Below are positions 16,501 through 32,000 of a stretch of DNA of 32,000 bases, one piece after another. Source of the stretch: Methylorubrum extorquens (GTDB taxonomy: Bacteria > Pseudomonadota > Alphaproteobacteria > Rhizobiales > Beijerinckiaceae); assembly GCA_900234795.1 (NCBI GenBank), contig LT962688.1:3210001-3242000 (forward strand), given 5' to 3'. The first letter of the stretch is position 1; every line of letters begins with the position of its first letter. Under the pieces are notes generated by a model. That model saw only the letters and a list, made by a program, of their open reading frames with translations, was not told the DNA's origin and ran no database searches. Position numbers and translations under genes: made by a program.

Positions 16501-19500
16501 GGGCTCGCTGCTCAAGGTCGCCTTGCCGAGGAAGGTCCGGGCCTTGTTGATCGCCGTGCGCGTCGCCTGCGTCTTCGCTTCGTCGAGACGCGTCTGTTCC
16601 GGGGTCGAAACGGTCACGGTGTTGCTGACCGTGGCGTTCACCGTGCCGGCACTGATCGCCTTCACCCCGACGCCGCCGGCCGTGGCCGTGGCGGTCGCTG
16701 CCTCGATCCGGGCACGGGTCGCCTGGGCGGCGGCAAAGGTGAAGAACCCGCTGCCGAGAATGGCGTCGATGGCCATCCCGACGACCTTGTCGGCCAGCTT
16801 ATCGCTGCCGGTCAGGCCGTCCGGCCGGTAGCCGACGATGTTGAAGGCCGCTGCACCGCCAATGGCCGTACCGCCGGACTTGCTCTCACCCGCGACCGAG
16901 GTCTGCACCCGCGAATCGATATTGGTCACGTCGGACGCGTTGACGGAGATGTCGCCGGTCGCGGCGCTCACGCTTCCGCCCTGGACGGTCGCCGTGGTGC
17001 TGCCGAGGACGATGTTGACGGCGTAGGAGCCGGCCACGCCGAACTTGCTCGCCGCGACGACGGCCTTCGCGTTGGTGGTCAGATCGAGGGCGTTCTGTGC
17101 GGTCAGCGCGACGCCCTGCGCGCCCGTGACGACCGAATTCGTGACGGTCGCCGTGATGTCGCGCTCGACCGTGTTGACGGCGGAGCTGCGGGCAATCCCG
17201 ATCTGCTCGCGCTTCGCCTCCTCGGCGTCGCTCTCCTCCTCGAGGGTGTCGGTCCGGATCGGCTCGACGATGGCCTGCGCCTTGGTCGCATCCATCGCGA
17301 CGACGGAGACAGCGCCGCCGGTCGCGGTCAGGCGCGCTGTCTCGACGACGGCCTTGGTGGAGCCGGTCAGCAGGTTGCGGGCCTGGACGGCGCGCGACTC
17401 GATCGTGGTGTCGTTGGTGGCCGCGACAGCGAGGGACGCGGCGGTGACGGACACGCCGCGCACGGCGACCCGCACGGTGTCGTTCACGTTGATCTGGGCC
17501 GCACCCGCCTTCATCGGTGCGGGCAGCGAATTGTCGGTCTCGCCGTCGCCCGCGACGAGGCCCGTCTCCGGGTTGGCCGGATCGGTCGCATCGGTGGCGG
17601 CGCGGATGCGCACGGCCAGGGTGCCGGCGTTGGCGGCATGGATCCCGGCAACGCCCTCCGCCGAAACGAGGGCGATATCGCCCGCGGCGGGCGCGCCAGC
17701 GGGAAGGCTTCCCGCGGCCGGCACGCCGAGATCGACGCTCGTGAGGCGCGTGACGGTCTGCGTGCCGCTCAGGCCGAACAGGTTGAGGATGTTGATGGCG
17801 GCAGCGGCTTTCGCGGCCGCGCTCGCCGCGCCGTCCAGCGCCGGGTCATCGAACTGGAACCCCGGCACCGATGCGGCATCCCGTGCGACGAGCGTGATCG
17901 TCGAGTCGGTCTTGTCGTCGGCCGAGATCTGAAGCGCGAGGGCAGGATCGCTGCCGGCAAGGGTGCCGGCGCCGGTCTGCTTGATCCTCGGGTCGGTGCT
18001 CACCGCACTCAGAGCGACCGTCACCTGGGTCGTGTTGTTGATCGTCGTTTCGGCCGATTTGATCAGGGCCTTGGCGGCCAGTTCGGCGGGCGTGAAGATG
18101 TCGCTGAAGCTGCCTTCGCCCTTGATCGCGCTCTTGACCTTGTCGAAGGTGCCGGCCGCGGCGTCGGTCACCGTCAGGAGGCCGGGCAGAACGAGCCCGA
18201 TGGCCTTCACATCGACCTTGGCCACCGTGTTGGCGGCGATCTTCACGGTCCCGCCGTTCACCGCCCCCTTGGCGCCGACGGTGATCGTCGAGCTGTTGGT
18301 CTGCTTCGGCGCGACGCTCTTGAGCTGCGACGTCAGGGTCGAGGTCAGCGTGACGGCGTTGTTGACGTCCGTGGTCAGGACGGCATCGCCCGTCCCCGCA
18401 TCAACCGTACCGGCGAGGGTGATTCCGGCAAGCCCGTTGGCGGTGACGCTGATGGTCGAGGTGTCGGCCGGCGCAATATCGGCGATGGCGATGTCGCTGC
18501 GGACGGCGACCCTCACGCCGGTTCCGCGGATGACGGCCCCGTCGTTGACGGTGACGGCCATCTGCGCCGTCGCGCTGCCGGAACGATCGAATCCGGATGT
18601 GGTGAGGACGGGCGTCACGGTCGCGTCGGCCGCGATGGTGACTTGGCCGCTGGCGGACAGCGTCTTGCCCGATGCGACGCTCAGGGTGTTGGCACCCTCG
18701 CCGCCCTTGAAGACGATGCCGAGATCACCCGCCAGCGCGCTCAGGTTGGCCGATACGGCGATGCTGTCATTGCCCGCCCCGCCATCGAAGGTGACGGCGA
18801 GATTTCCGGATGTGGCAGAGAGATCGGTGTCGAAGACGATTCTATCCGCGCCCGCGCCGCCGCTGACCGTGAAGGAGGGTGCCGGCGGCAGGCTGGCCAG
18901 GTGGAGCGTGTCATCGCCGCTGCCCAGGATCACGCCGAGGCTCGTCATCGGCGCGGTAAAGGCGAGGCTGCCGAAGGTCGCCGCCGAGGAGCCGCTGGTC
19001 CTGGCCAGGGTGTAGCTGCTTCCGCCGCCGGACAGCGTCGCATCGATGCTTCCCGCCACGACCGACGAGATGTCGAGCTGCAGGCTCTTCTTGCCGCCGC
19101 CGAACGTTCCGCTGAGGCTGCCGTTCGCGCCGATCGTCAGCTTGTCGTCGGCCGAAGCCGCACCGACGAGGTTGGCGACGTTCGAGAAGCTACCCGCGAA
19201 CTTGCCGGATGCGATCTCGCCGGCATTGGCGCCCGTCAGCTTGAACTCCGCGCCCGATTGCGCGGACCCGGTCGGCGTGTTCAGGAGGGCAAGGGTGTTG
19301 TCGAGATTGTTGCCGGGACTGGTCGGATCGGTGAAGGCGAGAATCGGCTTCTGAGTGGCGCCGAGAAGCTTGAAGGAGTCGGCATCGACCGTAATGGTCT
19401 CTTTGCCGCCCGACCCTTGAAGTGTGTAAGCTTGGTTTGAATTGGCATCGATGATGCCGAACGTGTGGAGCGGGTTCGTGCCCTGTGTCCCGTTCGTGTA

Positions 19501-19836: not shown

Positions 19837-19980
19837 GCCGCTCTCTCCAACCGGAACCTGCGCGGCCTGACCGGGCGCGCAAAGACATAGAGTCCCGGCA
19901 GGCTCCCTGAGCCGCCGGGATCGTTGTCACCGCTATTTTCGATTTCGGCCGGCGCTCAGCGGCTGCGCGTCGGCTCATGG

Positions 19981-20000
19981 CTCCCGGCCTCGACCGGGAG
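19981..20000 (-). terminator. GC-rich hairpin 11 nt after the SapC-family stop codon; possible partial terminator or attenuator between the SapC gene and the giant gene
   Basis: ctcccgg-cctcga-ccgggag gives a 7-bp perfect stem with a 6-nt loop. No U-tract follows on the minus strand, so its function is uncertain. Confidence 0.3.
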
Positions 20001-20010
20001 CGCTTCGGGA

Positions 20011-20811
20011 TCAGGCGTTGCCCGAAGTCTCGAAGTCGGCCGGAGACGCCGGCGCGGTCTCGTCCGCCTGCGCAGACTCGGCCGGAGCACCGATGCGCTC
20101 GGCGATCGGCGCAAGGTTCCGCAGCGAGGCGAGATGCAGATAGATCAGCTCCATCTCGTCCGCCTGCATCAGCTCGGCGAGCTGCTCGGCCGACAGAGCC
20201 TTCAGGCGATCACGGCTGACCACGCTGAAGCCGGAGAGCGTCGAGCGCTGACCGCTGCGCAGCGTGAACTGCGCCTGCATCGGCTCCAGGAGGCCGAACT
20301 CCTGCAGGCGCTTCACGAACAGTTTCGTGCGCTGGAACTGCACTTGATAGGCCTGAAGGAAGCCCAGGACGTTCTGCAGATACTGCGTCCGCTCGCCGTC
20401 GGCGTCGAACAGGCGCTCGCCGCGGCCCTCGTCGTTGCAGCCCGAGAAATCCTCATCGACGCAGAGCGTGAAGGTGGCATCGGCGTCGTTCGCGTTGTCG
20501 CTGGAAAACACGAACGGGTAGCGGCGCAGGAAGGCCGGGACGTACGAACCGGACCACGAACCCGATTCCGATACGTACAGGTTCTCGTTGTCGCGAATGC
20601 CGAGGAGCGCCACCGGAATGATCTCGTCGGCAGCCCCGCCGAACACGATGGAGTACTCAGCCGCCGAATTCGGAAACTCGGCGACCATGAGCGGCACCGA
20701 ATTGACGCCGCGCGCGAAGTCGAACGACGCACCGGCCTTCACGGACCATGACCCGTGACGCTGCCGGGTGACCGGTACGGCACGCTCGTAGATGAGAAGC
20801 TGCTTACTCAT
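20011..20811 (-). CDS. SapC family protein (266 aa)
   Basis: The motif string ...VPLMVAEFPNSAAEYSIVF...IPVALLGIRDNENLYV...GSWSGSYVPAFLRRYPFVF... matches the SapC (PF07277) consensus as I remember it. Codon usage has high GC3. It lies directly upstream of the giant gene on the same strand. Confidence 0.85.
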   Translation of the reverse strand: MSKQLLIYERAVPVTRQRHGSWSVKAGASFDFARGVNSVPLMVAEFPNSAAEYSIVFGGAADEIIPVALLGIRDNENLYVSESGSWSGSYVPAFLRRYPFVFSSDNANDADATFTLCVDEDFSGCNDEGRGERLFDADGERTQYLQNVLGFLQAYQVQFQRTKLFVKRLQEFGLLEPMQAQFTLRSGQRSTLSGFSVVSRDRLKALSAEQLAELMQADEMELIYLHLASLRNLAPIAERIGAPAESAQADETAPASPADFETSGNA

Positions 20812-21110
20812 TCCGACCCCATTTGGCGGCGCTTGTGCGATTTCCGCATCTTCGCCTCCTGCTGCATATCAGTACCGCCCACCGCTGCGGAGGGATGGTT
20901 CCATTTTTTCGATTGATCCAGCGTCTCAGATGCTGAACTCGCCGCCCCGGCCGCGACGGCCTCACCCGAGAGGATCAATCCTGGCGGCCCATTCTCGAAT
21001 GCGCGGGTCTCGGAAGCCATCGTGATCGGGGTCGGCGCGAAAATAATCATAGGCTGTACCCGGTTCGACACGACGTCGAAGCTGGGCTTGGCGCTCCGAT
21101 AGACTGCCAT
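20808..21110 (-). CDS. Hypothetical 100-aa ORF whose stop overlaps the SapC start (ATGA)
   Basis: ATG at 21110 and TGA at 20808-20810 overlapping the SapC ATG (20809-20811). My hand-counted GC3 is roughly 70 percent, higher than the overlapping alternative frame. I recognise no family. Confidence 0.3.
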   Translation of the reverse strand: MAVYRSAKPSFDVVSNRVQPMIIFAPTPITMASETRAFENGPPGLILSGEAVAAGAASSASETLDQSKKWNHPSAAVGGTDMQQEAKMRKSHKRRQMGSE

Positions 21111-21653
21111 ACCATGACAGCAAAGCTTCGCGATTGATGGGCCTGACCGCTCCGCCAGCGTGGCATTCGTCGATCATTTGAAGCAACGGCATCAGCCGAA
21201 AATAGGAAAACACCGAAAATCGACCTCAATCGACATGGCACTGCAGATTTATTTTACAATCGATCCGGCAAGCGCCATTCGGCAAACGGTTTTATTCGAA
21301 TCCATGCGGTTTTGCGAGGACATTTACTTCGAGCGAAGGAATTTCAGCCGATATGTCAGCGGCTACGAATACCCCGGCGATCGTCCAAGCTATCACTGTT
21401 GAGGAGGTTGCCTCTTGAAACCTCCACGGGCGACTTTAGCTGTACCGACGCTTCGACGGCGCCGGACAGCTCAGAGTTATTTTTAGCAGGGACGCGAATG
21501 GTATTTTGCATCCTATGTTGGAGTAATCTGCAATATCACTCGCATCTCTGCTGATAAATTTCATTCGGAACAGATGTTTCTACTAAGCCCCCCTCCTTTT
21601 CCGCGAATGTCGGCGGCCATTACCGGAATAGGAAAAGGCGCCCGATCGCTTTC

Positions 21654-22676
21654 TTGGAAGTCGATTGTCCCGTGACCTCTCTCCAGCGTCTGGATTATCT
21701 CACGACCGGGCTGCCCCACGCGACCGCAGCCGAAATCTGGAGAGGCATGGTCGGCCCCCTGTTCGAACCGCGGGCCTTCCATCCCGGTCAGCAAAATCCG
21801 ACCGGCTCGGCGAGCGGTGCCATCATCGGCGACATCATGGTGGCACGGGTGGTGTTCGGGGCGCAGAGTTATCGCCGCGACCGGGACCTCATCGCCCGCA
21901 CGCCGGATCACATCCTCTTCCATCTCTACAACGTTGGCGGCTTCAGCGGCCTCATCAGCGGGCAGCAAACCACGATCTGGTCGTCGCAGGTCGCGATCAT
22001 CGACCTCGCCCAGGAGATCGATACGCTCGCGGCCTCGTCGGACACGGTCGCGCTGATCGTCCCGCGGGCCTTGCTGCAGGGCCTGGCCGACAACCCGTTG
22101 CCGCCGCGGCTCGATGCCGGACGCAACCGGCTCCTGGCCGCCCATCTGATCGCGCTGCGTGAACGCAGCACGCTGATCGAAGAACCGGATGTCGAGGAGG
22201 TCGTGACGCAGACGCTCGATTTCCTGCGCGCGCTGCTCGATCCCTCCCGCGCCGAGGAGACCGCCGCGACGCCGGCGCTCGCCACCTGTCACCTCACTCT
22301 CGCCGAGCAGACGATCCGCACCCATCTCGCCTCGCCGGACCTGTCGCCGGAGATGATCGCCAACGAGATCGGCGTGTCGCGCGCGACCCTCTACCGGATG
22401 TTCGCCCCCTATGGCGGCATCATGCGCTCGGTCCAGGAACGACGGCTCCTGGCCGTCCGGGCCGCCCTCAGCGACCCGCTGGAGACCCGCCGCCTCTCCC
22501 GGCTCGCGACCGATTTCGGGTTTCGCGGCAAGGTCCATTTCAGCCGCAGCTTCCGCGCCCAGTTCGGCATCACCGCGAGCGAGTTCCGGGCCGAGCAGGT
22601 GGCCCTTGCCCAGCGGGATGCGCGGAGCGATCTTGGCGTCCTGCACGACTGGTGGCCCCGGCTCGGGAACCGATAG
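21654..22676 (+). CDS. AraC family transcriptional regulator (340 aa from TTG 21654; an alternative GTG start is at 21672)
   Basis: The C-terminal double-HTH text ...LSPEMIANEIGVSRATLYRMF...RRLLAVRAAL...LSRLATDFGFRGKVHFSRSFRAQFGITASEFR is typical AraC/XylS. The N-terminal ~200 aa is a non-conserved sensor domain. Confidence 0.88.
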   Translation: MEVDCPVTSLQRLDYLTTGLPHATAAEIWRGMVGPLFEPRAFHPGQQNPTGSASGAIIGDIMVARVVFGAQSYRRDRDLIARTPDHILFHLYNVGGFSGLISGQQTTIWSSQVAIIDLAQEIDTLAASSDTVALIVPRALLQGLADNPLPPRLDAGRNRLLAAHLIALRERSTLIEEPDVEEVVTQTLDFLRALLDPSRAEETAATPALATCHLTLAEQTIRTHLASPDLSPEMIANEIGVSRATLYRMFAPYGGIMRSVQERRLLAVRAALSDPLETRRLSRLATDFGFRGKVHFSRSFRAQFGITASEFRAEQVALAQRDARSDLGVLHDWWPRLGNR

Positions 22677-22807
22677 GGCCTCGTCCCCAAGGGTGGCTGG
22701 CGGGATGCGATGATCGGGCCGCGAAGGGTCCGTGTTTCGACACGTCCTTTGCCGGCGAACCGTCCTCTCTCTTCAGAAAAGCATGCCGGAGACGCGGCAC
22801 CGCCGGT

Positions 22808-23740
22808 TCAAGCCGGAGCCCGGCTCCAGGCCTGCCGCCGGGGCGCGGGCAAGGGGTGGACGAGATCGGCTTCGAGCCCGAATTTCGTGACATAGGCCGT
22901 GTTCAGGCCGAGGCATTCACGGGAGCTGCAGCTCTCCCGATGGGCGCATTGATAGAAGCCGTTGCGCTCGAATTCCCGCCAGAAATCCGGGTCGATGTGC
23001 AGTTCGGGCTGGCCGTTGACGAGGGCATTGCCGAGATCGCCGAGCAGGCATTCGGGGAAGTTCTTCACCTCGACGGCGCGTCCGAGCGCACGGGCGCGCA
23101 GGACCGCCTCGCGCAGATAGGGCAGGACGTCGGCGTGGCGGGCAACGAGGCCCTTCTCGTCGCGCTCGGACATCGGGAAGTAGACCCAGAACTCCATCTG
23201 GGTCAGGCGCTGGAGGTGGGCCAGCCGCGTGACGAGATCGGGCAGCAGGCGGTAGCTCCGCTCGGTCACCACGGTGTTGGTGAGGGTCTCGACGCCCTCC
23301 ATCGCGTCGAGGGTCTCCAAGCCGCGCAGCGCGCGCTCGAACGAGCCCGGCACCAGGGTCAGCGCGTCGTGGCTCGCCGCATCGCTGCCGGCGATGGAGA
23401 CGAAGAACTCGTCGACGCCGGCCTCGACCAGCCGGCGGCAGTAGCTCGGCTGGCCGAGATGCATGCCGTGGGTCTGAATGCGGACATGCGCGAAGCCGCT
23501 GGCTCTCGCCCGCCGGGCGAGTTCGGGCAGGTCGCGCCGCAGGGTGATCTCGGACCCGGTCAGGATCAGGCCGGTCCAGCGCCGCTCGCGGGCGTTCTGG
23601 CTGAGAATTTCCTCGAAATGCGCGTCCGATTCCGGCGCGAGCCGGTCCATCGTGCCCTCGATCATGCAGTGGACGCATTTGAGGTTGCAGCGAAACTCCA
23701 TCGTCAGGGAGACGTAGGCGGCGTGGTCGTAGCGTCCCAT
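22808..23740 (-). CDS. Radical SAM enzyme (310 aa) with a C-terminal Cys cluster
   Basis: The start is set at ATG 23740 (MGRYDHAAYVSLTMEFRCNLKCVHC...). The CxxxCxxC motif lies at ~23669-23692, and GSEITL plus a TIM-barrel-like core follow. The C-terminal QCAHRESCSSREC lies at 22913-22951. The tracked 587-aa ORF extends upstream only as Arg/Pro-rich junk overlapping the neighbouring gene. Confidence 0.85.
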   Translation of the reverse strand: MGRYDHAAYVSLTMEFRCNLKCVHCMIEGTMDRLAPESDAHFEEILSQNARERRWTGLILTGSEITLRRDLPELARRARASGFAHVRIQTHGMHLGQPSYCRRLVEAGVDEFFVSIAGSDAASHDALTLVPGSFERALRGLETLDAMEGVETLTNTVVTERSYRLLPDLVTRLAHLQRLTQMEFWVYFPMSERDEKGLVARHADVLPYLREAVLRARALGRAVEVKNFPECLLGDLGNALVNGQPELHIDPDFWREFERNGFYQCAHRESCSSRECLGLNTAYVTKFGLEADLVHPLPAPRRQAWSRAPA

Positions 23741-23757
23741 GGCGTCGTCCCAGCCCT

Positions 23758-24633
23758 TCAGAGCAGACCGTAATACGCGCTCTTCGTCACCGTCAGCCTG
23801 CCGTCGATCATCGCGTAGTCGATCCCGACATCGAACAGCAGATGTGACAGGCGCCGCCGCTCCGACCGCACGAAGTCGCGGATCGCGGGCGGATAGGCGA
23901 GCCGGTCGAGGAAGGCGATGAGCCCGTCGATGCCGACCCGCGAGAAATAGACGCCGTCGCACAGGCGCTTGTTGGCCACGACCACGACGCCGCAGCGCAT
24001 CAGTTCGGGCCACAGGATCGCGTCGAGATCGAGGCCGGGCAGATCGAAATGGGCCGAGCAGGCGGCCTTGGCCGCAATCGCGTCGCGCTCGCGGGCGGCG
24101 TCGAAGAAGCTGTAGAGGTTGTCGAAGACGAGGCCGTCGGCGGTGAGTCCGTAGCTGAGCCCGGACGAGACGCTGCTGCCGGGATTGCCGACATAGATGT
24201 TGAGGCGGTCGAGGCTCCGCGCGCCCCGGGCCAGGGCGTCGTCGAGATCGAGCGAGAACATGAAGTAGGGTCGCGCGCCCGCATAGCGCAGATCGCAGGG
24301 CACGAACGGCGCCAGGATCGCCAGGACGCGCTCGATAGAGACCGTGCGGTCGAGCCGGGCGTAGTCGTAGAAGTAGAACTCCCAGGTCGTGACGCCGTCC
24401 CGGAGCTTGGCGCCCCAGACGCTGCGGCCGGGGCCGAGGCCGTCGCGCAGCGCGTCGCAGATCGTGAACAGCTTCGGATCCGCACCCGCGCAGGCCAACG
24501 AGTGCCAGAGCAGGCTCGCTTGCCGCAGGCGTCCCGCCGTCGGCCCGACCGGCTCGTAATCCCACAGGCAATAATCGGCGTAGCGGTCACCCGGCGCGGA
24601 CAGTTCCAGGCGGGCGGGGTCGAGGCCGGTCAT
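23758..24633 (-). CDS. Hypothetical protein (291 aa), family not recognised; appears related to the C-terminal extension of the upstream flavoprotein
   Basis: The ATG at 24633 overlaps the upstream stop (ATGA, 24630-24633). The text is protein-like with repeated strand-like segments (TWEFYFYDY, YFMFSLDLD, LNIYVGNP, LLFDVGIDYAMIDGRLTVTKSAYYG). GC3 is high. The upstream part of the tracked 401-aa ORF is junk. Confidence 0.75.
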   Translation of the reverse strand: MTGLDPARLELSAPGDRYADYCLWDYEPVGPTAGRLRQASLLWHSLACAGADPKLFTICDALRDGLGPGRSVWGAKLRDGVTTWEFYFYDYARLDRTVSIERVLAILAPFVPCDLRYAGARPYFMFSLDLDDALARGARSLDRLNIYVGNPGSSVSSGLSYGLTADGLVFDNLYSFFDAARERDAIAAKAACSAHFDLPGLDLDAILWPELMRCGVVVVANKRLCDGVYFSRVGIDGLIAFLDRLAYPPAIRDFVRSERRRLSHLLFDVGIDYAMIDGRLTVTKSAYYGLL

Positions 24634-27014
24634 CCGCCGGCCACGCCGGAATACACGGTGACGAAGGGCTGGCCGTCCCGCCCGACGCCGCCGGCGACAT
24701 GCCCCAGCGTCTCCTGAAGCCGCTCTCGCAGAACCATCGCGGCCGCGTCGCGCGGCACGCCGAGATCGACGAAGGCTTGGCCGAGCAGCGGCTCCGCATC
24801 GGCCACGGTCAGGCCGCAGGCATAGAGGTTGAGGTCGTAGGACAAGCGTAGCCCCGGCTCCTCGCGGGCTTCGAGATAGTGGACCGCACCGCGCCCCCTC
24901 TCCTGCGCCAACCGGAGGATCGCATGGGCGGTGTCGCGCGCGGGCGCGCCGGCCGGCCCCCACTCACCGGCCATCCGGGTCAGCCGCGCCGCGATCTCCT
25001 CGGGGCCGCGCACCCGTGGCCAGTGGTAGAGGGTGACGACGGGCGGATGCGTTCCCCCTAGCTTCCACTTATAGGCGCGATGGACCAGCATCGGCTCCGC
25101 GCCCGCCTCGTCCGCCCCGGTCCAGGCCGCGTCAGTGCGCGACGACCATTCGACGTAGAGCTTGTAGAGCGCGCCCGACGGGCCGTCCTCGTAGCCGAGA
25201 TGAAGGATGTCCGCCCCGCCGATCACGCCGGCGGCCTCCGCGCGCTCCCGCTCCGGCAATCCGAGCCCGGCGGCCAGCCGGTCGAGCGTCGCCTCGGGTG
25301 TGAGGCCGAGGCTCGCGCGGTGCAGGCTCATGAGGAAGCGGTCGGTCTGCAATCCCGCCGGGGAGGCCTTCACCGAGCGCTCGTAGCCGAAGGGCTGGCC
25401 GAGCCCCGCCACCAGATCGGCGAGACGGGCGCCCTCCGGCGTCCTGCGCAGAGCCGCCGGGCCGGCCGGCGCCGAAGCCGCCGCGATGCGCACCGCAGGC
25501 GCGGCGACGGGGGCCTCGCCGTGCAACGCGTCCATCAGACGGACATGCGGCGCCATCGCCCCGGCGATCTGGGCCGACTGCGCACGGATACTGGCGAGCA
25601 GACGGGCGATCTCGCGGCCATCGGCGACATCGACCGGAGCGAAGGGCCGACGCGGCAGGAAATCGGCGCCGGAGAATAGGAGGTAATGATCGCCCTCGCT
25701 GAACGGCGCCTCCTCGTTCAACGCGACATGCCCGGCCAACTCGTAGAGGTCGAGGCGGTCGGCGAGCCGGTCGGGGATCATCACCGCGCGGGCCGCCGCC
25801 CAAAACGGCTCCGACCGCCGGCCGAGAACGTAATGCGCGGCCACCGCCTCGGCCGCATCGTCGTGGAAGCGGTTCAGGCGCGCGGCATAGGCACGGCGCA
25901 GCACGTCACCGCCTTCCCCCTGGCGCGGCAGGTAGGCGAGGAACGTTTCGAGTCCGGCCAGGACGAGATCGAGATCGAAGCCGAGGAGCGGCTCGACCGC
26001 TCCGGCCGCCCCCATGGCGACGACGTTGCGCTGCCACGGTGCGGCGCGGCGACCGTGACGCAGTTCCGCATCGACGATGCCCGCCTGCCCATCGAAGGTG
26101 CGGCGCAGGGTGGCCGCCGCCGCATCCGGCGGCGTGGTCCGGATGTCGTAGACGAACAGATGCTCCGTGCGATCGGCCAGCGGCAGCGACGCCGTCCATC
26201 CCTCCGCCCGGCCGCGATAGGCGGTGAAGGGCGGCACCTCGGGCGATCGCGGCAAGGACAGGCGGGCCACGCGGTCTCCGGGGCCGCTGCCCGCGACCCA
26301 GGCCTCGCCGAGCGCGGTGCCGATGAGCTGCGCGGCCGCGCCGGTACAATCGAGGAAGATGTCGCCCTCGACCGTCTGTCCTCCGTCGAGGACGAGGGCG
26401 CCGACATCGCCGTACAGGTTGCGCTCGATCTCGCGGACCCGCCCGGTCACCCCGCGCACGCCTTCGGAAAGCGCCAACTCGCGCAGGAAACGGACGAGAG
26501 CAGTTCGGTCGAGGTGATAGCCGTAATCACCGGATTCGGTGAGCGAGGACCGATCCGCCAAGGGGCGGGGTCCGCGCCCCTCGGCCGCCATCAGCGCCTG
26601 GGGCGCGTAATCGGCGTAGCTCCCGGCCTCGTCCTCGGCGCCCTCGCCGCGAAGCTTCATCCAGTAGTGGAACAGGTCGCGGCCGGCGATCCGCGGGCCG
26701 CAGGCACCGAAGGGGTGCCAGTGGCCCTGGCCCTCGGCGAACCAGTCGTCGTAGCGGCTGGCGAGCCGATAGGTCGCCGCGCAGCGGCGCATGAAGATCG
26801 CCTCGTCGATGCCGAACCCCTTGAGGAAACGGGTGAAGGCCGGGCGCGTCGCCAGGGCGGCGGAGGCCCCCGCAGCCGGGGCCGACCCGACGAGGGTGAT
26901 CGTCCAGCCCGCCCGGCGCAGGACGCGCTTCAGATAGAGCGCGGCCATCCAGCCGGCGGGACCGCCGCCGGCGACGACCAGGCGCGGAGGCGCGGAGCGT
27001 TCGGACCTGAACAT
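24630..27014 (-). CDS. Tryptophan-halogenase-family FAD-dependent protein (divergent motifs) fused to a ~280-aa C-terminal domain of unknown function (794 aa)
   Basis: The start is set at ATG 27014 (MFRSERSAPPRLVVAGGGPAGWMAALYLKR...), with GGAG ~12 nt upstream. GGGPAGWMAA and GHWHPFG resemble the Trp-halogenase family N-terminus. The site expected for WxWxIP reads GWTASLPL (26178-26201). The tracked 972-aa ORF is an upstream junk extension across the kinase gene. Confidence 0.8.
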   Translation of the reverse strand: MFRSERSAPPRLVVAGGGPAGWMAALYLKRVLRRAGWTITLVGSAPAAGASAALATRPAFTRFLKGFGIDEAIFMRRCAATYRLASRYDDWFAEGQGHWHPFGACGPRIAGRDLFHYWMKLRGEGAEDEAGSYADYAPQALMAAEGRGPRPLADRSSLTESGDYGYHLDRTALVRFLRELALSEGVRGVTGRVREIERNLYGDVGALVLDGGQTVEGDIFLDCTGAAAQLIGTALGEAWVAGSGPGDRVARLSLPRSPEVPPFTAYRGRAEGWTASLPLADRTEHLFVYDIRTTPPDAAAATLRRTFDGQAGIVDAELRHGRRAAPWQRNVVAMGAAGAVEPLLGFDLDLVLAGLETFLAYLPRQGEGGDVLRRAYAARLNRFHDDAAEAVAAHYVLGRRSEPFWAAARAVMIPDRLADRLDLYELAGHVALNEEAPFSEGDHYLLFSGADFLPRRPFAPVDVADGREIARLLASIRAQSAQIAGAMAPHVRLMDALHGEAPVAAPAVRIAAASAPAGPAALRRTPEGARLADLVAGLGQPFGYERSVKASPAGLQTDRFLMSLHRASLGLTPEATLDRLAAGLGLPERERAEAAGVIGGADILHLGYEDGPSGALYKLYVEWSSRTDAAWTGADEAGAEPMLVHRAYKWKLGGTHPPVVTLYHWPRVRGPEEIAARLTRMAGEWGPAGAPARDTAHAILRLAQERGRGAVHYLEAREEPGLRLSYDLNLYACGLTVADAEPLLGQAFVDLGVPRDAAAMVLRERLQETLGHVAGGVGRDGQPFVTVYSGVAGG

Positions 27015-27043
27015 CGAGTTGTCGGCTCCGCGAGCGTCGCCCC

Positions 27044-27703
27044 TCACGCCGTCGGCGTCGGGAGGGCCGTAAGGGTGGCGTGGAGAGTGGATTGGATTGC
27101 GGACTGAATGGCGTCGAGGTGCGCGGCGAGCGTGCCGGCGCCGAGAATCTGGTCGGCCGCCGGCCGGACCCGTTCGCGCTGCAGCGCGTAGGTCGGGTGC
27201 AGCAGGGCATCGTAGCGCCCGAGATAGGCATCGAGCGCCTCGAGAAGCCCGGGGGCGGCCGTCGGATCGCGCCCCGCCGCCTCGGTGAAGCTGCGCAGCT
27301 TGCGCGCCAGCGCGACATCCAGGGGCAGATCGAGCCAGACCAGATGGTCGATCTGCGCGCCCGTTCCGGGATGGGCCCGGCCGAGCAGGGTGTCGAGAAC
27401 GATCACGGGCCGTGCCGCGCGCCGCGACAGGCGCAGCGTGCCGCCGCGCTCCCGGTCCGGCACCGGCTCGCCGCGCCGCAGCCGGGCCAGATCCTCGGCG
27501 AGCCCCGGCACGGGCACCGCGTCGAGGGGTGCGCCGCCCGCGAGCCATGCCGCCACCCGCTCCGGCGGCCAGCCGGTGATTTCCTCATAGGCGTCGTAGG
27601 CGAGCACGGGCGCGCCGCCGAAGCGCTCCGATAGGGCGTGGGACAAGGTGGTCTTGCCGCTGCCCGGCGGTCCGCTGACCGCGAGAACGAAGGGCGCGCT
27701 CAC
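27044..27703 (-). CDS. P-loop NTPase / small-molecule or nucleotide kinase-like protein (219 aa)
   Basis: Walker A VSGPPGSGKTT lies at the N-terminus, and the size and layout are those of uridine-kinase/AAA-kinase-like proteins. The GTG start at 27703 overlaps the methyltransferase stop (GTGA). Confidence 0.75.
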   Translation of the reverse strand: MSAPFVLAVSGPPGSGKTTLSHALSERFGGAPVLAYDAYEEITGWPPERVAAWLAGGAPLDAVPVPGLAEDLARLRRGEPVPDRERGGTLRLSRRAARPVIVLDTLLGRAHPGTGAQIDHLVWLDLPLDVALARKLRSFTEAAGRDPTAAPGLLEALDAYLGRYDALLHPTYALQRERVRPAADQILGAGTLAAHLDAIQSAIQSTLHATLTALPTPTA

Positions 27704-28752
27704 CGGGCACCGCCGGGCTTGCGCGCCGCGATCAGGTGGAACGGCGTCTCAAACGCAAGGCAGCGGACGCTGCAATCGACGAAGCCGAGAGCGGCCAGCG
27801 TCTCGGTATAGAGGTCCGCATCCCGGAAGAAGGGCTGGAACACGAGGTCGGCGGATTGGACGTAGCCGAGGGGGCGCTCGCGCAGAGCCATGGGTGCCCG
27901 CTCATAGATCGCGAGACGCCCGCCGGGGGCGAGCGCGCGGGCGGCGCGTTCGAGCAGGGCACGGGCCTCGCCGGCCGGCCAATCGTGCAGGACCGACTTG
28001 AAGGTCACGAGGTCGTGCCCCTCGGGCAGGGGATCGCGCCGCATGTCGCCGGCCTGGAACGCGACGCGGGCGCCTTCCGGCCGGTCCGCGAGGTTCTCGC
28101 GGCCGAGCGCGCAGACGACGGGCAGGTCGAACACCGTCGCGGTCAGGTCCGGCGCGCGGCGGCAGGCCTGGGCGGCGAACTCGCCGCTATTACCGCCGAG
28201 ATCGAGCAGGCGCCGATGCCGGCCCGGCTCGATCCGGTCGAGGCCCGGCCCGGCCTCGTAGCGGGTCAGGCAGGTGGTGTAGGCGACCCAGCGCCGGGTC
28301 GCGTCGAGGTTGTCCGGCGTGATCTCGAAGCAGCGGTCGTAGCGGAACAGCTCGAAGGTGCGCGAGGCCGCCATGAAAGCCGGAAGGTCGGCGACGAAGG
28401 CGGGGAAATGCCGGCGCAGATCCTCGGACGCGGCGGCAGCGAAGGCGAGCTTCGCCTCGATGAGGTCGCGGCAGGGCAGCACGGCGCGGAACGCCTCGCT
28501 CAGCCCGATCCGGCCCGGCGCGGGCTCGGCGGCGATGCCGGCACCGACGAGGAGGCCGGTCAGGGAGGCAAGTTGCGGCCGCTCGAGCCGAAACTCCTCG
28601 GCCAGCCCCGAAATGGTGGTGTCCGCGCGGCGGGCGAGCCGGTCGATCAGACCCGATGTGAGGGCGAAGCTGAGGGCGTGCGCGGCGGCTTCGCTTTCGA
28701 GGAAGCGGTCCACGCGCGGAAACTCCGGGCCCGGCAGCTCCGGCGCCGACAT
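27700..28752 (-). CDS. Class I SAM-dependent O-methyltransferase, family-2 type (350 aa; an alternative ATG at 28776 adds 8 aa)
   Basis: LLDLGGNSGEFA (SAM motif I), ...FDLP..., ...FKSVLHDWP... and ...PGGRLAIYE are typical of PF00891-type O-methyltransferases. A winged-helix/dimerisation-like N-terminus is present. GGAGGGGGGAGGG lies just upstream of the ATG at 28752. Confidence 0.85.
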   Translation of the reverse strand: MSAPELPGPEFPRVDRFLESEAAAHALSFALTSGLIDRLARRADTTISGLAEEFRLERPQLASLTGLLVGAGIAAEPAPGRIGLSEAFRAVLPCRDLIEAKLAFAAAASEDLRRHFPAFVADLPAFMAASRTFELFRYDRCFEITPDNLDATRRWVAYTTCLTRYEAGPGLDRIEPGRHRRLLDLGGNSGEFAAQACRRAPDLTATVFDLPVVCALGRENLADRPEGARVAFQAGDMRRDPLPEGHDLVTFKSVLHDWPAGEARALLERAARALAPGGRLAIYERAPMALRERPLGYVQSADLVFQPFFRDADLYTETLAALGFVDCSVRCLAFETPFHLIAARKPGGAR

Positions 28753-28845
28753 CCCGCGCCCTCCCCCCTCCGGCATCAGCGTGACGCCAAGCTCAGGCTG
28801 CGGCGCGGGACTCGGTCAAACCTCTGGAATGAAGGAGGCTTTGAA

Positions 28846-28908
28846 TTGAGACGCTGGATCAACGCATTTTTCTTCGTGGCCATTGCCGCCGCCACATTCC
28901 ATTCGTGA
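28846..28908 (+). CDS. Candidate 20-codon small ORF (M/L)RRWINAFFFVAIAAATFHS: leader peptide or small hydrophobic membrane peptide
   Basis: The strong SD GAAGGAGG (28831-28838) lies 7 nt before TTG 28846. The ORF sits in a low-GC intergenic region, and an intrinsic terminator follows about 85 nt downstream. No homology is claimed. Confidence 0.3.
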   Translation: MRRWINAFFFVAIAAATFHS

Positions 28909-28993
28909 TCGAATCGCACAAACCGTGCAATAGCTCCTATCGCCCTGTGTGCCATAAATGCAAGGCGACTTGGTTTCGCTGGGTTCGCAAGGC

Positions 28994-29020
28994 AAGCCGT
29001 CGTTCAACGACGGCTTTATT
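28994..29020 (+). terminator. Rho-independent terminator-like hairpin (plus orientation)
   Basis: aaGCCGTCG-ttcaa-CGACGGCtt followed by TTTATT gives a 7-9-bp stem, a 5-nt loop and a T-rich tail on the plus strand only. Confidence 0.6.
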
Positions 29021-29114
29021 CGTGCAATGTCTTGACGAGGACTTCAGCTTCGCGATCCAGCCCGGCATCGGCCCGGCGGTGATGTCGAGGAGCGCGAGGT
29101 CACGTCGCGCGGTA

Positions 29115-29435
29115 ATGCGTGCAGATGAGGGAGCAGTCGTGAGCGAGAGCAGCAAGCCCGGTGCCGCCGATCAGGTGCGTGCGATCGAATGGCGTGAAGA
29201 CAGCATGTCGACACAGTTCGCCAACGTCGTGAACGTGCAGGGCACCCGCGAGCAGGTGGATCTGTTCTTCGGCACCAATCGGACCTGGAACCTCGCCGAG
29301 ACAGAGAGCGTGGTGGTCGATCTCTCGAACCGCGTGATCCTCACGCCGCTCGCAGCCAAGCGCCTCCACTCCGTCCTCGGCGGCGTGCTGACCGAGTACG
29401 AGAACCGCCACGGGCGCCTCGACCTCGACGCCTGA
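29115..29435 (+). CDS. DUF3467-like small protein (106 aa from ATG 29115; 98 aa from GTG 29139, which has the better SD, AGGGAG)
   Basis: ...QFANVVNVQGTREQVDLFFG...NRVILTPLAAKRLHSVLGGVLTEYENRHGRL matches my memory of the DUF3467 pattern ((Y/F)xN...E..lDFg...R.imtP..AKrL...L...l..YE..fG.i). The upstream part of the tracked 176-aa ORF lies in low-GC intergenic DNA and is unlikely to be coding. Confidence 0.7.
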   Translation: MRADEGAVVSESSKPGAADQVRAIEWREDSMSTQFANVVNVQGTREQVDLFFGTNRTWNLAETESVVVDLSNRVILTPLAAKRLHSVLGGVLTEYENRHGRLDLDA

Positions 29436-29436
29436 C

Positions 29437-29463
29437 CCGTAATGCCCCGCCGCCGCATTACGG
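29437..29463 (+). promoter_or_regulatory. Intercistronic hairpin between the DUF3467-like gene and the HlyD-family gene
   Basis: ccgtaatgc-cccgccgcc-gcattacgg gives a perfect 9-bp stem and a 9-nt loop, starting 2 nt after the stop codon. No clear U-tract follows. Confidence 0.5.
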
Positions 29464-29521
29464 CGGCCGGGCCCTTCTGCAACGAGACCCTGAGCGCCGT
29501 CAGTCAAGGAATCCGGGGGCC

Positions 29522-31408
29522 ATGAGCGAGCGTTTGGCGGTGGAGGGCGCGTCCGCAGCGAGCCCGGCCGCGCGCCTGTCCCTGCTGGAGCCGGCCCTGT
29601 GGCAGGTGCTCCGGACCTCCCAGACGCTTCAGGCCGCGGCGGAAGCGTGGCTCACGCTCCAGGCGCCGATGCTCGGCGCCCCGCGGGCCTGCGTCCTGCT
29701 TCCGGGCACGTCGGTGGGGCTCGCCCCGCTCGCCGTGTTCCCGGCTCAATCCGAGTGCGAAGCCGGCCTGCGCGAGACCGCCGAGGCCGCCTTTCGCGAG
29801 AACCGCCCGGTCGTGCAGGCGATGGCGGAGGCCGGGCCGCATCCGGGCGCCGCGCCGCAGGGGTCGGGCGCGTGGATCGCGCTGCCGCTGGTTCTGGACG
29901 AGGCGTGTTTCGCCGTCACCGCCTTCGCCCTCGACAGCCTCGACAAGGACGAGCTGCGCGCGGCGATCCGTCAGGTGCAGTGGGGCAGCGCGTGGCTCGT
30001 CGCCAAGCAGGCCGAACTGATCGGGCGGGGCGAGCGCCGGACGCTGGCCCGCTCGCGCTCCGTCCTCGACCTGCTCGCCGGGGTGCTCGAGCAATCGCGC
30101 TTTTCCGCCGCCTGCACCGCCGCGGTGACGGACCTTGCCATCGCCTTTTCCTGCCAGCGCGCGGCAATCGGCTTCGTGCGGCGCGGCAGCACCCGGATCG
30201 CGGCGATCTCGCACTCGGCGCAGTTCGGCCGCGAGATGAACCTCGTGCGCCGCCTCGGCGCCTGCATGAACGAGGCGATCGACCAGCGCAGCCTGATCCT
30301 GTTCCCGCCGCCCGAGAACGAGGCCACCGTCACGACGGCGCATGCCGACCTCGCCCGCCTGCAATATGGCGGCCGAGTGCTGACCGTGCCGATGCTCGTC
30401 GATGACCGCTTCGTCGGCGCCATCACCCTGGAGCGGCCCGCCGACCAGCCGTTCAGCCTCGAGATCGTCGAGCAGGTGAGCGCCTGCGCCGCCGCCATCG
30501 GCCCGGTGCTGGAAGACAAGCGGCAGAACGACCGATGGCTGGTGCTGAAGGCCACCGACGCCGTGATGAACGGCGCGCGGCTGGTCTTTGGCCCGAACCA
30601 TACCGGGCTCAAGCTCGGCCTCGCCGCGACGCTGGCCGTGGTCCTGGCGCTCTCGGTGATCAAGATCGATTACCGCGTGACTGCGGACGCCCGCGTCGAA
30701 GGCCTCGTGCGCCGTTCCGTCGTCGCCTCCTACGACGGCTACCTGAAGACCGCCGGGCACCGCGCCGGCGACACGGTGCGCAAGGGCGATCTCCTCGCCG
30801 CCCTGGAAGACCGCGATCTCGCCCTGGAGCGCCTGCGCTGGGTCACCGAGCGCCAGCAGCGCACCTACGAGTACGACAAGGCGCTCGCCACCCGGCAGCC
30901 CGCCACGATCAACGTGGTGAAGAGCCAGATCGATCAGGCCGACGCGCAGATCCGCCTGCTCGACGAGCAGATCGCGCGCTCGAAATTCACCGCGCCCTTC
31001 GACGGCTTGATCGTCTCCGGCGACCTTTCGCAATCCATCGGCGGCGCCATCAGCCGCGGACAGGTGCTGTTCGAGATCGCTCCGCTCGACAGCTACCGCG
31101 TCGTCCTCAGCGTGGACGAGCGCCTGATCGCCGACCTGCGCGAGGGCCAGACCGGGCACGTGCTCGCGACCTCCCTGCCCGACCAGCCGCAAGTGCTGAC
31201 GATCCAGACCATCACCCCCGTGGCCGAGGCCAAGAACGGCCGCAACCTGTTCCGGGTCGAGGGCCGGATCGAGGACGGCGCCACCCGGCTGCGGCCGGGC
31301 ATGGAAGGCATCGCCAAGGTCGATGTCGACCGGCGGCTGCTCGCCTGGGTCTGGGCCCGGCCGATCGTCGATTGGGTGCACCTCGCCCTCTGGCACTGGT
31401 GGCCGTGA
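29522..31408 (+). CDS. HlyD-family membrane fusion / periplasmic adaptor protein with an N-terminal cytoplasmic GAF-like region (628 aa)
   Basis: The N-terminal ~330 aa end with GAF-like text (...VLTVPMLVDDRFVGAITLERPADQPFSLEIVEQVSACAAAIGPVLE). One TM segment (LKLGLAATLAVVLALSVI) follows. Then comes an HlyD-type lipoyl/coiled-coil/beta-barrel region (YDGYLKTAGHRAGDTVRKGDLLAALEDRDL...FTAPFDGLIVSGDL...RPGMEGIAKVDV). Confidence 0.85.
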   Translation: MSERLAVEGASAASPAARLSLLEPALWQVLRTSQTLQAAAEAWLTLQAPMLGAPRACVLLPGTSVGLAPLAVFPAQSECEAGLRETAEAAFRENRPVVQAMAEAGPHPGAAPQGSGAWIALPLVLDEACFAVTAFALDSLDKDELRAAIRQVQWGSAWLVAKQAELIGRGERRTLARSRSVLDLLAGVLEQSRFSAACTAAVTDLAIAFSCQRAAIGFVRRGSTRIAAISHSAQFGREMNLVRRLGACMNEAIDQRSLILFPPPENEATVTTAHADLARLQYGGRVLTVPMLVDDRFVGAITLERPADQPFSLEIVEQVSACAAAIGPVLEDKRQNDRWLVLKATDAVMNGARLVFGPNHTGLKLGLAATLAVVLALSVIKIDYRVTADARVEGLVRRSVVASYDGYLKTAGHRAGDTVRKGDLLAALEDRDLALERLRWVTERQQRTYEYDKALATRQPATINVVKSQIDQADAQIRLLDEQIARSKFTAPFDGLIVSGDLSQSIGGAISRGQVLFEIAPLDSYRVVLSVDERLIADLREGQTGHVLATSLPDQPQVLTIQTITPVAEAKNGRNLFRVEGRIEDGATRLRPGMEGIAKVDVDRRLLAWVWARPIVDWVHLALWHWWP

Positions 31409-31419
31409 GGGGTTGAGGC

Positions 31420-32000
31420 ATGTCCCAGTCCCTGTTCAGCCAATCGTGGTACCGCGTCGCGGCCCTGCGCCCGCGCCTGCGCCGCCATGCCGAGATCCAC
31501 CGGCAGAGCTTTCGCGGCGAGGTCTGGTACGTCCTTCAGGATCACCAGACCGGGCGCTTCCACCGCCTCTCGCCCGCCGCCAACCTCATCCTGTGCATGA
31601 TGGACGGGCGCCGCACCCTGCAGGAGGTGTGGGAGGCGGCCGCGCGCCGCAACGAGGATGACCCGCCGACCCAGGACGACACGATCCGTCTGATCTCGCA
31701 GCTCCACGGCTCGGACCTGCTCCAGGGCGACCTGCCGCCCGATCTCGCCGAACTCGCCGAGCGCTCGGAATCGACCGCGCGCCGCACCCTGATCGCCCGG
31801 GTGAAGAACCCGCTGGCCCTGCGCTTCCCGCTGTTCGACCCCGATCCGTTGCTCGACCGGGTCGCGCCGTATTTCCGGCCGCTCTTCTCGGTCTGGGGGC
31901 TCGCGGTCTGGCTCGCGGTGGTGATTGCCGGCCTCGTCGTGGCCGGGTTGCACGCGGGCGAGCTGACCGGCGACGTCGCCGGTCAGATGCTCTCGGCGCA
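31420..32000 (+). CDS. N-terminal part of a 'putative peptide zinc metalloprotease' type protein (PqqD-like N-domain, then membrane region; M50/HlyD-fusion family). Truncated by the window edge.
   Basis: ATG at 31420 follows GAGGGGTTGAGG. MSQSLFSQSWYRVAALRPRLRRHAEIHRQSFRGEVWYVLQDHQTGRFHRLSPAANLILCMMDGRRTLQEVWEAA...DDPPTQDDTIRLISQLHGSDLLQGD... is the conserved N-terminus I remember for this family. A first TM segment (VWGLAVWLAVVIAGLVVAGL) follows. It is absent from the ORF track because there is no stop codon within the window. Confidence 0.8.
   Translation, partial: MSQSLFSQSWYRVAALRPRLRRHAEIHRQSFRGEVWYVLQDHQTGRFHRLSPAANLILCMMDGRRTLQEVWEAAARRNEDDPPTQDDTIRLISQLHGSDLLQGDLPPDLAELAERSESTARRTLIARVKNPLALRFPLFDPDPLLDRVAPYFRPLFSVWGLAVWLAVVIAGLVVAGLHAGELTGDVAGQMLSA

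Follow-up and report, generated by a model that had tools for sequence, protein, structure and literature searches.

Giant proteins of the LEPR-XLL type include the largest bacterial proteins known, those of the Cag_663/Cag_665 class. In Chlorobium chlorochromatii, Cag_663 and Cag_665 carry LEPRxLL N-termini, and genes for SapC and TolC flank their loci (bioRxiv 10.64898/2026.03.19.712371). SapC has also been described in neighborhoods that join it to a tryptophan halogenase, a TonB receptor and, optionally, a JOR/JmjC dioxygenase, and was predicted to be an enzyme (Iyer et al. 2010; PMC2938197). Here we analyzed a 32,000-nt stretch of Methylorubrum extorquens DNA (assembly GCA_900234795.1, contig LT962688.1), hereafter the window, to which all positions are relative and whose G+C content is ~70%. 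On its reverse strand, five adjacent genes (22808-28776) encode an O-methyltransferase (OMT), a P-loop kinase, a flavoprotein fused to a domain that we term unkA, a 291-aa protein that we term unkB, and a radical S-adenosylmethionine (SAM) enzyme (rSAM); genes for a SapC-family protein and a giant LEPR-XLL protein lie further downstream on the same strand. This five-gene cassette belongs to a gene system that is widespread and undescribed, and no description of the cassette was found in the literature on LEPR-XLL proteins, SapC, DUF3467, SecA/HlyD/M50 proteins encoded with giants, or the extorquens halogenase. We tentatively propose that the cassette tailors the giant LEPR-XLL protein, or its leader of ~75 residues, in the cytoplasm before export, in the manner of a ribosomally synthesized peptide that is modified after translation (RiPP).

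Linkage of the cassette to giant LEPR-XLL proteins

A one-genome-per-species scan returned 177 stretches with unkB relatives. The best 80 of these loci, which derive from Alpha-, Beta-, Gamma- and Deltaproteobacteria, Nostoc/Trichormus and a metagenome-assembled genome (MAG) of the Chitinivibrionales, were examined by searching their open reading frames (ORFs) with the proteins of the window, and counts are given for the 50 of them whose 10-kb flanks are complete. Nearly all of these loci encoded rSAM (49 of 50) and unkA (47), and most encoded SapC (41, following the rSAM gene), OMT (41) and a giant or LEPR-motif ORF (38), while the kinase and a halogenase-family protein were found in 29 and 26, respectively. 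Genes for a GAF-HlyD protein (33), an M50 protease (32), a SecA-like protein (31) and a DUF3467 protein (30) were also frequent; alphaproteobacterial loci typically had an OmpA-like gene, and gammaproteobacterial ones TolC. The usual alphaproteobacterial order on one strand is OMT-kinase-(halogenase)-unkA-unkB-rSAM-SapC-giant, with DUF3467, GAF-HlyD, M50 and the SecA paralogue encoded divergently from the cassette. The window follows this order except that an AraC-family gene and a low-GC spacer lie between rSAM and SapC. Since an AraC gene was found in 12 of the 80 loci, all from Methylobacterium, Methylorubrum or Bosea, comparison of gene orders identifies the AraC gene and spacer as an insertion into a conserved unit.

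The Nostoc loci keep the giant ORF, SapC, OMT, rSAM, unkA and unkB, and their exporter consists of a C39-peptidase ABC transporter with a second ABC transporter (L074:14961-20125, Nostoc sp. FACHB-152; related loci carry our L numbers). Because Nostoc swaps the exporter and keeps the giant ORF, the cassette tracks the giant protein rather than one particular exporter. When the unexplained ORFs of 83 loci were clustered, no further family was present in more than 11 loci, and no genes for non-ribosomal peptide synthetases (NRPS), polyketide synthases (PKS), terpene synthases or other scaffold-building or precursor-supplying enzymes recurred in the neighborhoods.

In the window, the SapC-family gene (20011-20811, reverse strand; PF07277, E 2e-71) precedes a 4133-aa ORF (7435-19836, reverse strand) that carries LktA_tand_53 repeats and matches the NCBIfam LEPR-8K model NF012209 at residues 55-77 with 26 bits (cut-off 17). 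We considered an NRPS/PKS megasynthase for this ORF and rejected it, the translation being that of a Gly/Ala/Ser/Thr-rich repetitive filament protein. A second ORF of at least 2527 aa (3-7586, reverse strand), which runs off the window, overlaps the first in a different frame at 7420-7480. Filament-like sequence continues on both sides of this junction, and the last ~15 residues of the upstream ORF and the first ~55 of the downstream one are Arg/Pro/Ser-rich and seemingly out of frame. A single gene of at least 6600 codons, broken by a frameshift, is the probable origin of the two ORFs; the sequence could contain an error here, or the gene could be a pseudogene or subject to recoding.

When 45 distinct giants from Alpha- and Gammaproteobacteria were aligned at their N-termini, they showed an invariant MA[FY]PF at residues 1-5, followed by an Arg/Lys-rich spacer of 45-60 residues and then by R..F..LEPR.L (LEPRxLL). 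In the window, this conserved N-terminus occupies ~19606-19836 (reverse strand), and its roughly 60-75 residues look like a leader. The giant ORFs contain no Cys, and their rare Trp residues fall in recurring motifs. The upstream ORF has D-[FY]-T-x3-L-W, and the downstream one has N-x-I-G-x-W, repeated every ~275 residues; these Trp motifs could be acceptor sites or structural residues. The giant-protein gene system is also present in M. extorquens AM1 and PA1.

An earlier note, drawn up from the window, had described a tightly coupled five-gene operon convergent with an AraC-family gene, and this description holds. All five ORFs lie within 22808-28776 (reverse strand) where that note placed them, and G+C at third codon positions (GC3) is 0.87-0.90 across the five genes, with a coding-like distribution over codon positions. 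Read directly, the junctions are GTGA (27700-27703), in which the OMT stop overlaps the GTG start of the kinase gene, a spacing of 29 nt between kinase and fusion, ATGA (24630-24633), in which the fusion stop overlaps the unkB ATG, and a spacing of 17 nt between unkB and rSAM; the same order recurs in 80 loci of other genomes. Pfam and NCBIfam searches bear out the classes that had been named (OMT, P-loop kinase, flavoprotein fusion and radical SAM), and a profile hidden Markov model (HMM) search in which no curated model reached its cut-off, apart from generic Pfam domains, agrees with the remark that the set is not a recognizable pathway. The operon is not a self-contained pathway: it makes up the upstream half of a larger conserved unit with SapC and the giant LEPR-XLL protein, beside a dedicated exporter.

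Enzymes of the cassette, exporter genes and flanking features

The cassette proteins correspond to M. extorquens records SOR30060-62, with near-identical counterparts in AM1 (ACS40189-91; same 90% cluster). None of the five has transmembrane-like segments, and the enzymes are predicted to be soluble.

unkA forms the C-terminal 279 aa (24633-25469, reverse strand) of the 794-aa fusion (24630-27014, reverse strand) and is homologous to stand-alone proteins of 268-288 aa encoded beside unkB in other genomes. The structures of unkA and of unkB (23758-24633, reverse strand) were predicted with AlphaFold2 from alignments of database proteins, with pLDDT values of 94.4 and 91.8, respectively, and in both models ten strands alternate with pairs of helices. 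When the PDB was searched with Foldseek, the best 27 matches of unkB were all ABBA/PT-barrel prenyltransferases, and unkA gave 58 matches at E ≤ 1e-3, of which all 50 listed were ABBA prenyltransferases, with probabilities of 1.00 and E-values down to 1e-6. The matches include AmbP1/AmbP3, FamD1, TleC, EpzP, CymD, FgaPT2 and FunA, and among the best for unkA are the RiPP prenyltransferases PagF, PirF, LimF, KgpF, DciF and PatF. On these models, unkA and unkB have the ABBA/PT-barrel fold. The earlier note had left the 291-aa protein as an unknown, which remains apt as regards sequence family and no longer so as regards fold.

By sequence, no named relative of unkB, unkA or SapC emerged from Pfam, NCBIfam and PDB searches; unkB had no match at all in these three collections, and 48 unkB and 40 unkA members returned no prenyltransferase or recurrent Pfam family even at E ≤ 5. 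Neither protein could be placed by sequence in the DMATS, CloQ/NphB or cyanobactin F families. We also considered whether unkA and unkB are paralogues, and neither BLASTP nor hhalign gave a signal, so they share a fold and homology between them is not demonstrable by sequence. Because there is no family match and no mutual profile match, the two constitute PT-barrel families recognizable by fold only, and, being absent from Pfam and NCBIfam, these families are new. The 911 homologues of unkB are all unnamed or labeled "hypothetical", and at 50% identity 1151 representatives of the unkA family were obtained from the 1.8 billion proteins of a library. These unkA relatives were gathered through related loci and a profile, a word-based search with the Ala-rich domain having returned only 6 proteins. 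Invariant residues of unkA lie at i/i+2 positions of strands (E30/S32/K34, K103/Y105/E107 and R208/S210/D212), as do invariant strand residues of unkB (E85/Y87/Y89, N172/Y174/F176 and K284/Y288). Among these residues, Lys, Arg, Tyr and His are frequent in both families, with Glu and Asp also present, as would be expected of a diphosphate-binding lumen; they are a likely active site and are presumed to face the lumen.

The N-terminal ~500 residues of the fusion (25515-27014, reverse strand) are a tryptophan-halogenase-family flavoprotein domain matching PF04820 over residues 12-457 (E 8e-85), with 6y1w and 6frl as closest structures; both of these halogenases we take to be active on free indole. 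The GxGxxG FAD motif is kept as GGGPAGW, as is the Glu of the EPLES region. The position of the catalytic Lys (K79 of PrnA), which is Lys in the solved homologues aligned, is occupied by Arg (ATYRLAS), GEATIP is replaced by LATRP, and WxWxIP by WTASLP. The PF04820 fold and the GxGxxG motif therefore support membership of the halogenase family by sequence, while the catalytic Lys and WxWxIP are lacking, and because these two defining features fail, the database label "tryptophan 7-halogenase" is unsuitable for the fusion. The related loci encode 39 halogenase-family proteins, ~24 with all canonical motifs and ~15 degenerate, the latter comprising the unkA-fused Methylobacterium/Bosea proteins and a few non-fused homologues. 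As the domain is still well conserved and its motifs are lost, it is probably functional, although not as a canonical halogenase. A QhpG/GoxB-type maturase was considered and rejected, since the NCBIfam matches (E 1.5e-11 and 1e-3) fall far under the cut-offs and cover part of the FAD domain only. The earlier call of a flavoprotein fusion was thus right in class and missed both the absence of catalytic motifs in the halogenase-family domain and the PT-barrel in the C-terminal half.

Fusions to unkA are frequent and varied. The halogenase-unkA fusion occurs in Methylobacterium, Methylorubrum and Bosea, an in-frame kinase-unkA fusion in 8 loci (Mesorhizobium, Aquamicrobium, Devosia and an alphaproteobacterial MAG), an OMT-halogenase-unkA fusion in L072, and DUF3467-unkA and DUF3467-unkA-unkA fusions in Deltaproteobacteria. 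Among unkA-family proteins of the library (our P numbers), P0257 is fused to FAD_binding_3, P0331 to FAD_binding_4 and a sulfotransferase, and P0199 is a DUF3467-unkA-unkA fusion. Many members are 370-400 aa long, with an N-terminal extension of ~100 residues; four of these were scanned, and DUF3467 was found in two, clearly in P0199 and under the cut-off in P0214, indicating that the extensions of long members may be DUF3467. Together, the fusions point to unkA as a fusion hub. The flavoenzyme partner appears interchangeable, because canonical and degenerate halogenases, a PHBH-type hydroxylase and a VAO-type oxidase all occur, and from the set of unkA fusions and partners, the other variable enzymes (O-methyltransferase, kinase and sulfotransferase) would all cap hydroxyls. 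The pattern is that of a conserved core (two barrels, rSAM and SapC) with what may be lineage-specific tailoring of an oxidized aromatic position.

The OMT (358 aa; 27700-28776, reverse strand) matches PF00891 with E 2e-23 and 83 bits (cut-off 22.3). Its closest solved relatives are DnrK, DsyB and hydroxyindole OMT, and the SAM motif LDLGG(NSG) and the His of LHDW are kept in at least 95% of 62 homologues, identifying it by sequence as a class I O-methyltransferase of family 2 (COMT/DnrK). The kinase (219 aa, GTG start; 27044-27703, reverse strand) has an intact Walker A motif (GPPGSGKT), and its family profile matches uridine kinase 3w8r (residues 3-182, E 7e-10) as well as, over the whole length, uridine-cytidine kinase and phosphoribulokinase (PRK); invariant residues are G14, G16 and K17 of Walker A, D37, H111, D129 and R134. 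NCBIfam matches were all under their cut-offs, and no equivalog model was reached. These features place it by sequence in the uridine kinase/PRK P-loop family, and the full-length match to such enzymes therefore makes it a small-molecule-type hydroxyl kinase. Self-resistance, which the earlier note had suggested for the kinase, is unlikely given that at least 8 genomes carry an in-frame kinase-unkA fusion; these fusions instead argue for a step inside the pathway, and the other suggestion, a role in substrate activation, is possible.

The rSAM (310 aa; 22808-23740, reverse strand) matches PF04055 with 56.9 bits (cut-off 29.5), and its CX3CX2C motif (C18/C22/C25) is invariant. Four C-terminal Cys residues (C231, C265, C271 and C276) are likewise invariant in 77 of 77 homologues, which suggests a second, auxiliary Fe-S cluster. 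No SPASM match was found in Pfam, and scores against the NCBIfam SPASM families were far under the cut-offs. No curated subfamily model came near its cut-off, similarity to HxsC4, AhbD and BlsE being sub-threshold, and the best structural relative by sequence is the nucleoside-modifying BlsE.

Divergent from the operon, on the forward strand, lies the DUF3467 gene (28905-29435; PF11950 at ORF residues 86-173). Its 176-aa ORF from 28905 is probably too long, because GC3 is low until ~29200, and the true start is probably at ~29115-29139. The divergent intergenic region of ~340 nt between the OMT gene and this probable start (28777-29114) yielded no sigma-70-like promoter or Rfam element. Next come a gene for a GAF-domain membrane-fusion (HlyD/RND-adaptor) protein (29522-31408, forward strand), and, cut by the window end, one for a PqqD-M50-HlyD membrane metalloprotease, whose N-terminus (31417-32000, forward strand) matches PqqD, a RiPP recognition element (RRE). 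A full-length orthologue in L005 contains PqqD, Peptidase_M50 and HlyD_3, and the orthologue in L001 matches the daptide intramembrane metalloprotease model NF041824 (E 1.6e-46); the M50 protein resembles the daptide and YydH/LiaK RiPP leader metalloproteases. Parts reminiscent of RiPP systems are the leader-like N-terminus of the giant and the PqqD domain on an M50 protease related to daptide and epipeptide proteases.

In related loci, the gene for a SecA paralogue of ~660 aa (L002:17135-19123; L001:1-1548) always adjoins the PqqD-M50-HlyD and GAF-HlyD genes, and in M. extorquens it would lie past the 3' end of the window. Its first ~550 residues match SecA (model positions 15-547 of ~800) and comprise the DEAD motor, the preprotein cross-linking domain and the second P-loop domain, whereas the C-terminal third of SecA is missing. 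No ABC transporter was found in the proteobacterial loci, and for this reason their exporter is not a canonical type I system; the SecA paralogue and HlyD-type proteins may form a non-Sec, non-ABC tripartite exporter.

Downstream of the rSAM gene, a terminator-like hairpin lies 8 nt past its stop (22783-22800, reverse strand). The AraC-family regulator (21654-22676, forward strand; PF12833 and PF00165) is separated from the operon by a 131-nt gap, as previously noted, and the cgtgt-ttcg-acacg hairpin reported in this gap is present at about 22730-22744 and, with its 5-bp stem, as weak as had been said. The hairpin at 22783-22800 is a somewhat better terminator candidate, although neither is strong evidence, because the number of terminator-like structures in the region equals the expectation from shuffled sequence. 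Rfam gave 0 matches in the window, and no sigma-70-like promoter was matched within 19800-29500. The spacer between the AraC and SapC genes (20812-21653) has a G+C content of ~56%. A 100-aa ORF (20808-21110, reverse strand) that overlaps the SapC start in an ATGA was considered as a gene or precursor and rejected, having a GC3 of 0.71 and being present in the closest relatives only.

A possible maturation pathway and its alternatives

We infer the substrate and each chemical step of the proposed tailoring from the folds, motifs, synteny, fusions and leader found in these loci. In this pathway, the PT-barrel pair, which is translationally coupled and almost always adjacent, would bind a donor activated as a diphosphate, which is probably a prenyl diphosphate, and use it to alkylate an electron-rich side chain, with unkA acting as a hub that recruits, or is fused to, other enzymes. 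The rSAM with its four-Cys site would carry out radical C-H functionalization, such as cross-linking, epimerization or methyl-type chemistry. Given that the FAD motif is kept and the Lys and WxWxIP are lost, the halogenase-derived flavoprotein would oxidize or hydroxylate an aromatic ring rather than halogenate it, a step that canonical halogenases or PHBH-type hydroxylases would fill in orthologous systems. The OMT or the kinase could then cap the new hydroxyl, as a sulfotransferase might in other lineages. DUF3467 and the PqqD domain perhaps recognize the leader and hand the modified protein to the exporter, and export would proceed through the M50-HlyD, GAF-HlyD, SecA-paralogue and OmpA-like or TolC components, with the M50 protease removing the leader.

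Tailoring of the giant protein is favored by the synteny and one-strand gene order, the exporter swap in Nostoc, the leader and the PqqD-M50 protease, the folds with their likely active sites, the fusions, the lack of recurring scaffold-building genes and the lack of transmembrane-like segments in the five enzymes. Several observations weigh against it. The likeness to PT-barrel enzymes is one of fold only, with TM-scores of 0.4-0.6 and identities of 8-16%, and no gene supplying a prenyl donor is linked to the cassette. The leader motif offers mostly Phe, a poor prenyl acceptor, and the tailoring enzymes lack an RRE, the sole PqqD domain being on the protease. In at least two loci, L068 and L070, both from Pseudomonadales-type MAGs, OMT-kinase and unkB-rSAM genes occur, and neither a giant ORF nor an exporter, unkA or SapC was found within 10 kb of them; the neighbors examined in L070 (cassette at L070:7957-11805) are housekeeping genes for phosphoenolpyruvate synthase, chorismate synthase and the GspD secretin. 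Finally, small molecules are the main known substrates of the families to which the OMT, the kinase and the nearest solved halogenases belong. With limited confidence, we also consider it conceivable that the whole unit, comprising the leader, the two barrels, rSAM, SapC, the variable enzymes and a non-ABC tripartite machine driven by the truncated SecA paralogue, together with the PqqD-M50-HlyD protease and the GAF-HlyD adaptor, is an undescribed maturation and export system for giant surface proteins.

The alternative that survives best, although we consider it doubtful, is that the cassette makes a small aromatic metabolite, probably derived from indole or phenol, that is used with the giant filament, so that the polypeptide is not the substrate. 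Its synthesis would involve alkylation, radical chemistry, oxidation or halogenation, and O-methylation or phosphorylation. Such a metabolite might, for example, be attached covalently, act as a cross-linker or pigment, or bind to the GAF domain of the membrane-fusion protein. The small-molecule COMT/DnrK/ASMT type of the OMT, the full-length likeness of the kinase to uridine kinase and PRK, the nearest solved halogenases (6y1w and 6frl) and the nucleoside-modifying relative of the rSAM, BlsE, all fit a metabolite, as do the minimal cassettes of L068 and L070 with no giant gene nearby and the ligand-binding GAF domain of the exporter adaptor; a small-molecule role was also proposed for the SapC-halogenase neighborhoods of Iyer et al. 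2010 (PMC2938197). However, no scaffold, precursor-supply or small-molecule transporter genes recur, the strongest and most portable partner of the cassette is the giant gene on the same strand, and unkA is very often found fused to DUF3467, which is itself a partner of the protein exporter.

It is improbable that the PT-barrels are non-enzymatic binding or chaperone modules that hold the giant protein, still unfolded, or its leader and present it to the exporter, with the other enzymes peripheral or regulatory. The fusion of unkA to many partners is reminiscent of a recognition module, one of these partners, DUF3467, is encoded with the exporter genes, and the structural matches of unkA include PatF, which we take to be an inactive PT-barrel protein and so a precedent for non-catalytic barrels. 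Invariant polar and charged residues at alternate strand positions are nevertheless more typical of an active site, and the rSAM, whose cluster motifs are intact, is conserved as a partner to the same degree as SapC. A stand-alone secondary-metabolite operon with giant adhesin genes adjacent by accident is very improbable, for although the AraC gene, low-GC spacer and terminator-like hairpin separate the cassette from SapC and the giant in the window, and the cassette stands alone in L068 and L070, the linkage to SapC, giant and exporter genes extends across phyla and gene orders, far beyond chance.

Comparison with known systems

The cassette links giant proteins to a concrete and conserved group of enzymes, its neighborhood ties SapC, which has long been an orphan family, to defined partners, and M. 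extorquens AM1 and PA1 offer a genetically tractable host for this system. Compared with the Chlorobium giants, the loci share SapC and TolC beside giant LEPRxLL proteins. From the neighborhoods of Iyer et al., SapC and a halogenase-family protein are shared, whereas the TonB receptor and JmjC protein that belong to that definition do not recur here. Neither of these two reports (PMC2938197 and bioRxiv 10.64898/2026.03.19.712371) describes a PT-barrel pair, an rSAM, an OMT or kinase, or the SecA-paralogue/M50/GAF-HlyD apparatus.

Among enzyme families, the indole and aromatic ABBA prenyltransferases (DMATS FgaPT2, CymD, IptA, TleC, AmbP1/AmbP3, FamD1, NphB and EpzP) are the best structural matches of unkA and unkB. 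The strands of unkA and unkB are likewise rich in Tyr and basic residues, but the two proteins are smaller than the DMATS enzymes and have no Pfam prenyltransferase match. With the tryptophan halogenases PrnA, RebH, BrvH and Xcc4156, the flavoprotein domain shares a full-length PF04820 match and the FAD motif, and it differs in having Arg for Lys, degenerate GEATIP and WxWxIP motifs and a fused PT-barrel.

The RiPP prenyltransferases of the cyanobactin F family are, like unkA, ten-strand barrels of ~280-300 aa, and both are encoded near an RRE domain, a substrate with a leader and a peptidase for its removal, the last two being putative in the giant-protein loci. In contrast with that family, to which unkA and unkB show no detectable sequence or profile similarity, two divergent barrels occur here in tandem, and the substrate, a short peptide in that family, is presumed to be a protein several thousand residues long. 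Epipeptide (YydFGHIJ) and daptide systems also pair a radical SAM enzyme with an M50-type leader metalloprotease. Here, however, the protease is fused to PqqD and HlyD domains, the substrate would be a giant, the rSAM lies outside the YydG family by any HMM, and the place of the ABC transporter is taken by a truncated SecA paralogue with membrane-fusion proteins. With type I secretion, the loci share the membrane-fusion proteins together with TolC in Gammaproteobacteria or an OmpA-like protein in Alphaproteobacteria, and they depart from the definition of such systems. The system is RiPP-like in parts and type-I-secretion-like in its adaptors while conforming to the full definition of neither, and, if the proposed tailoring is correct, its product would in effect be a "giant RiPP" that has a secretion pathway of its own.

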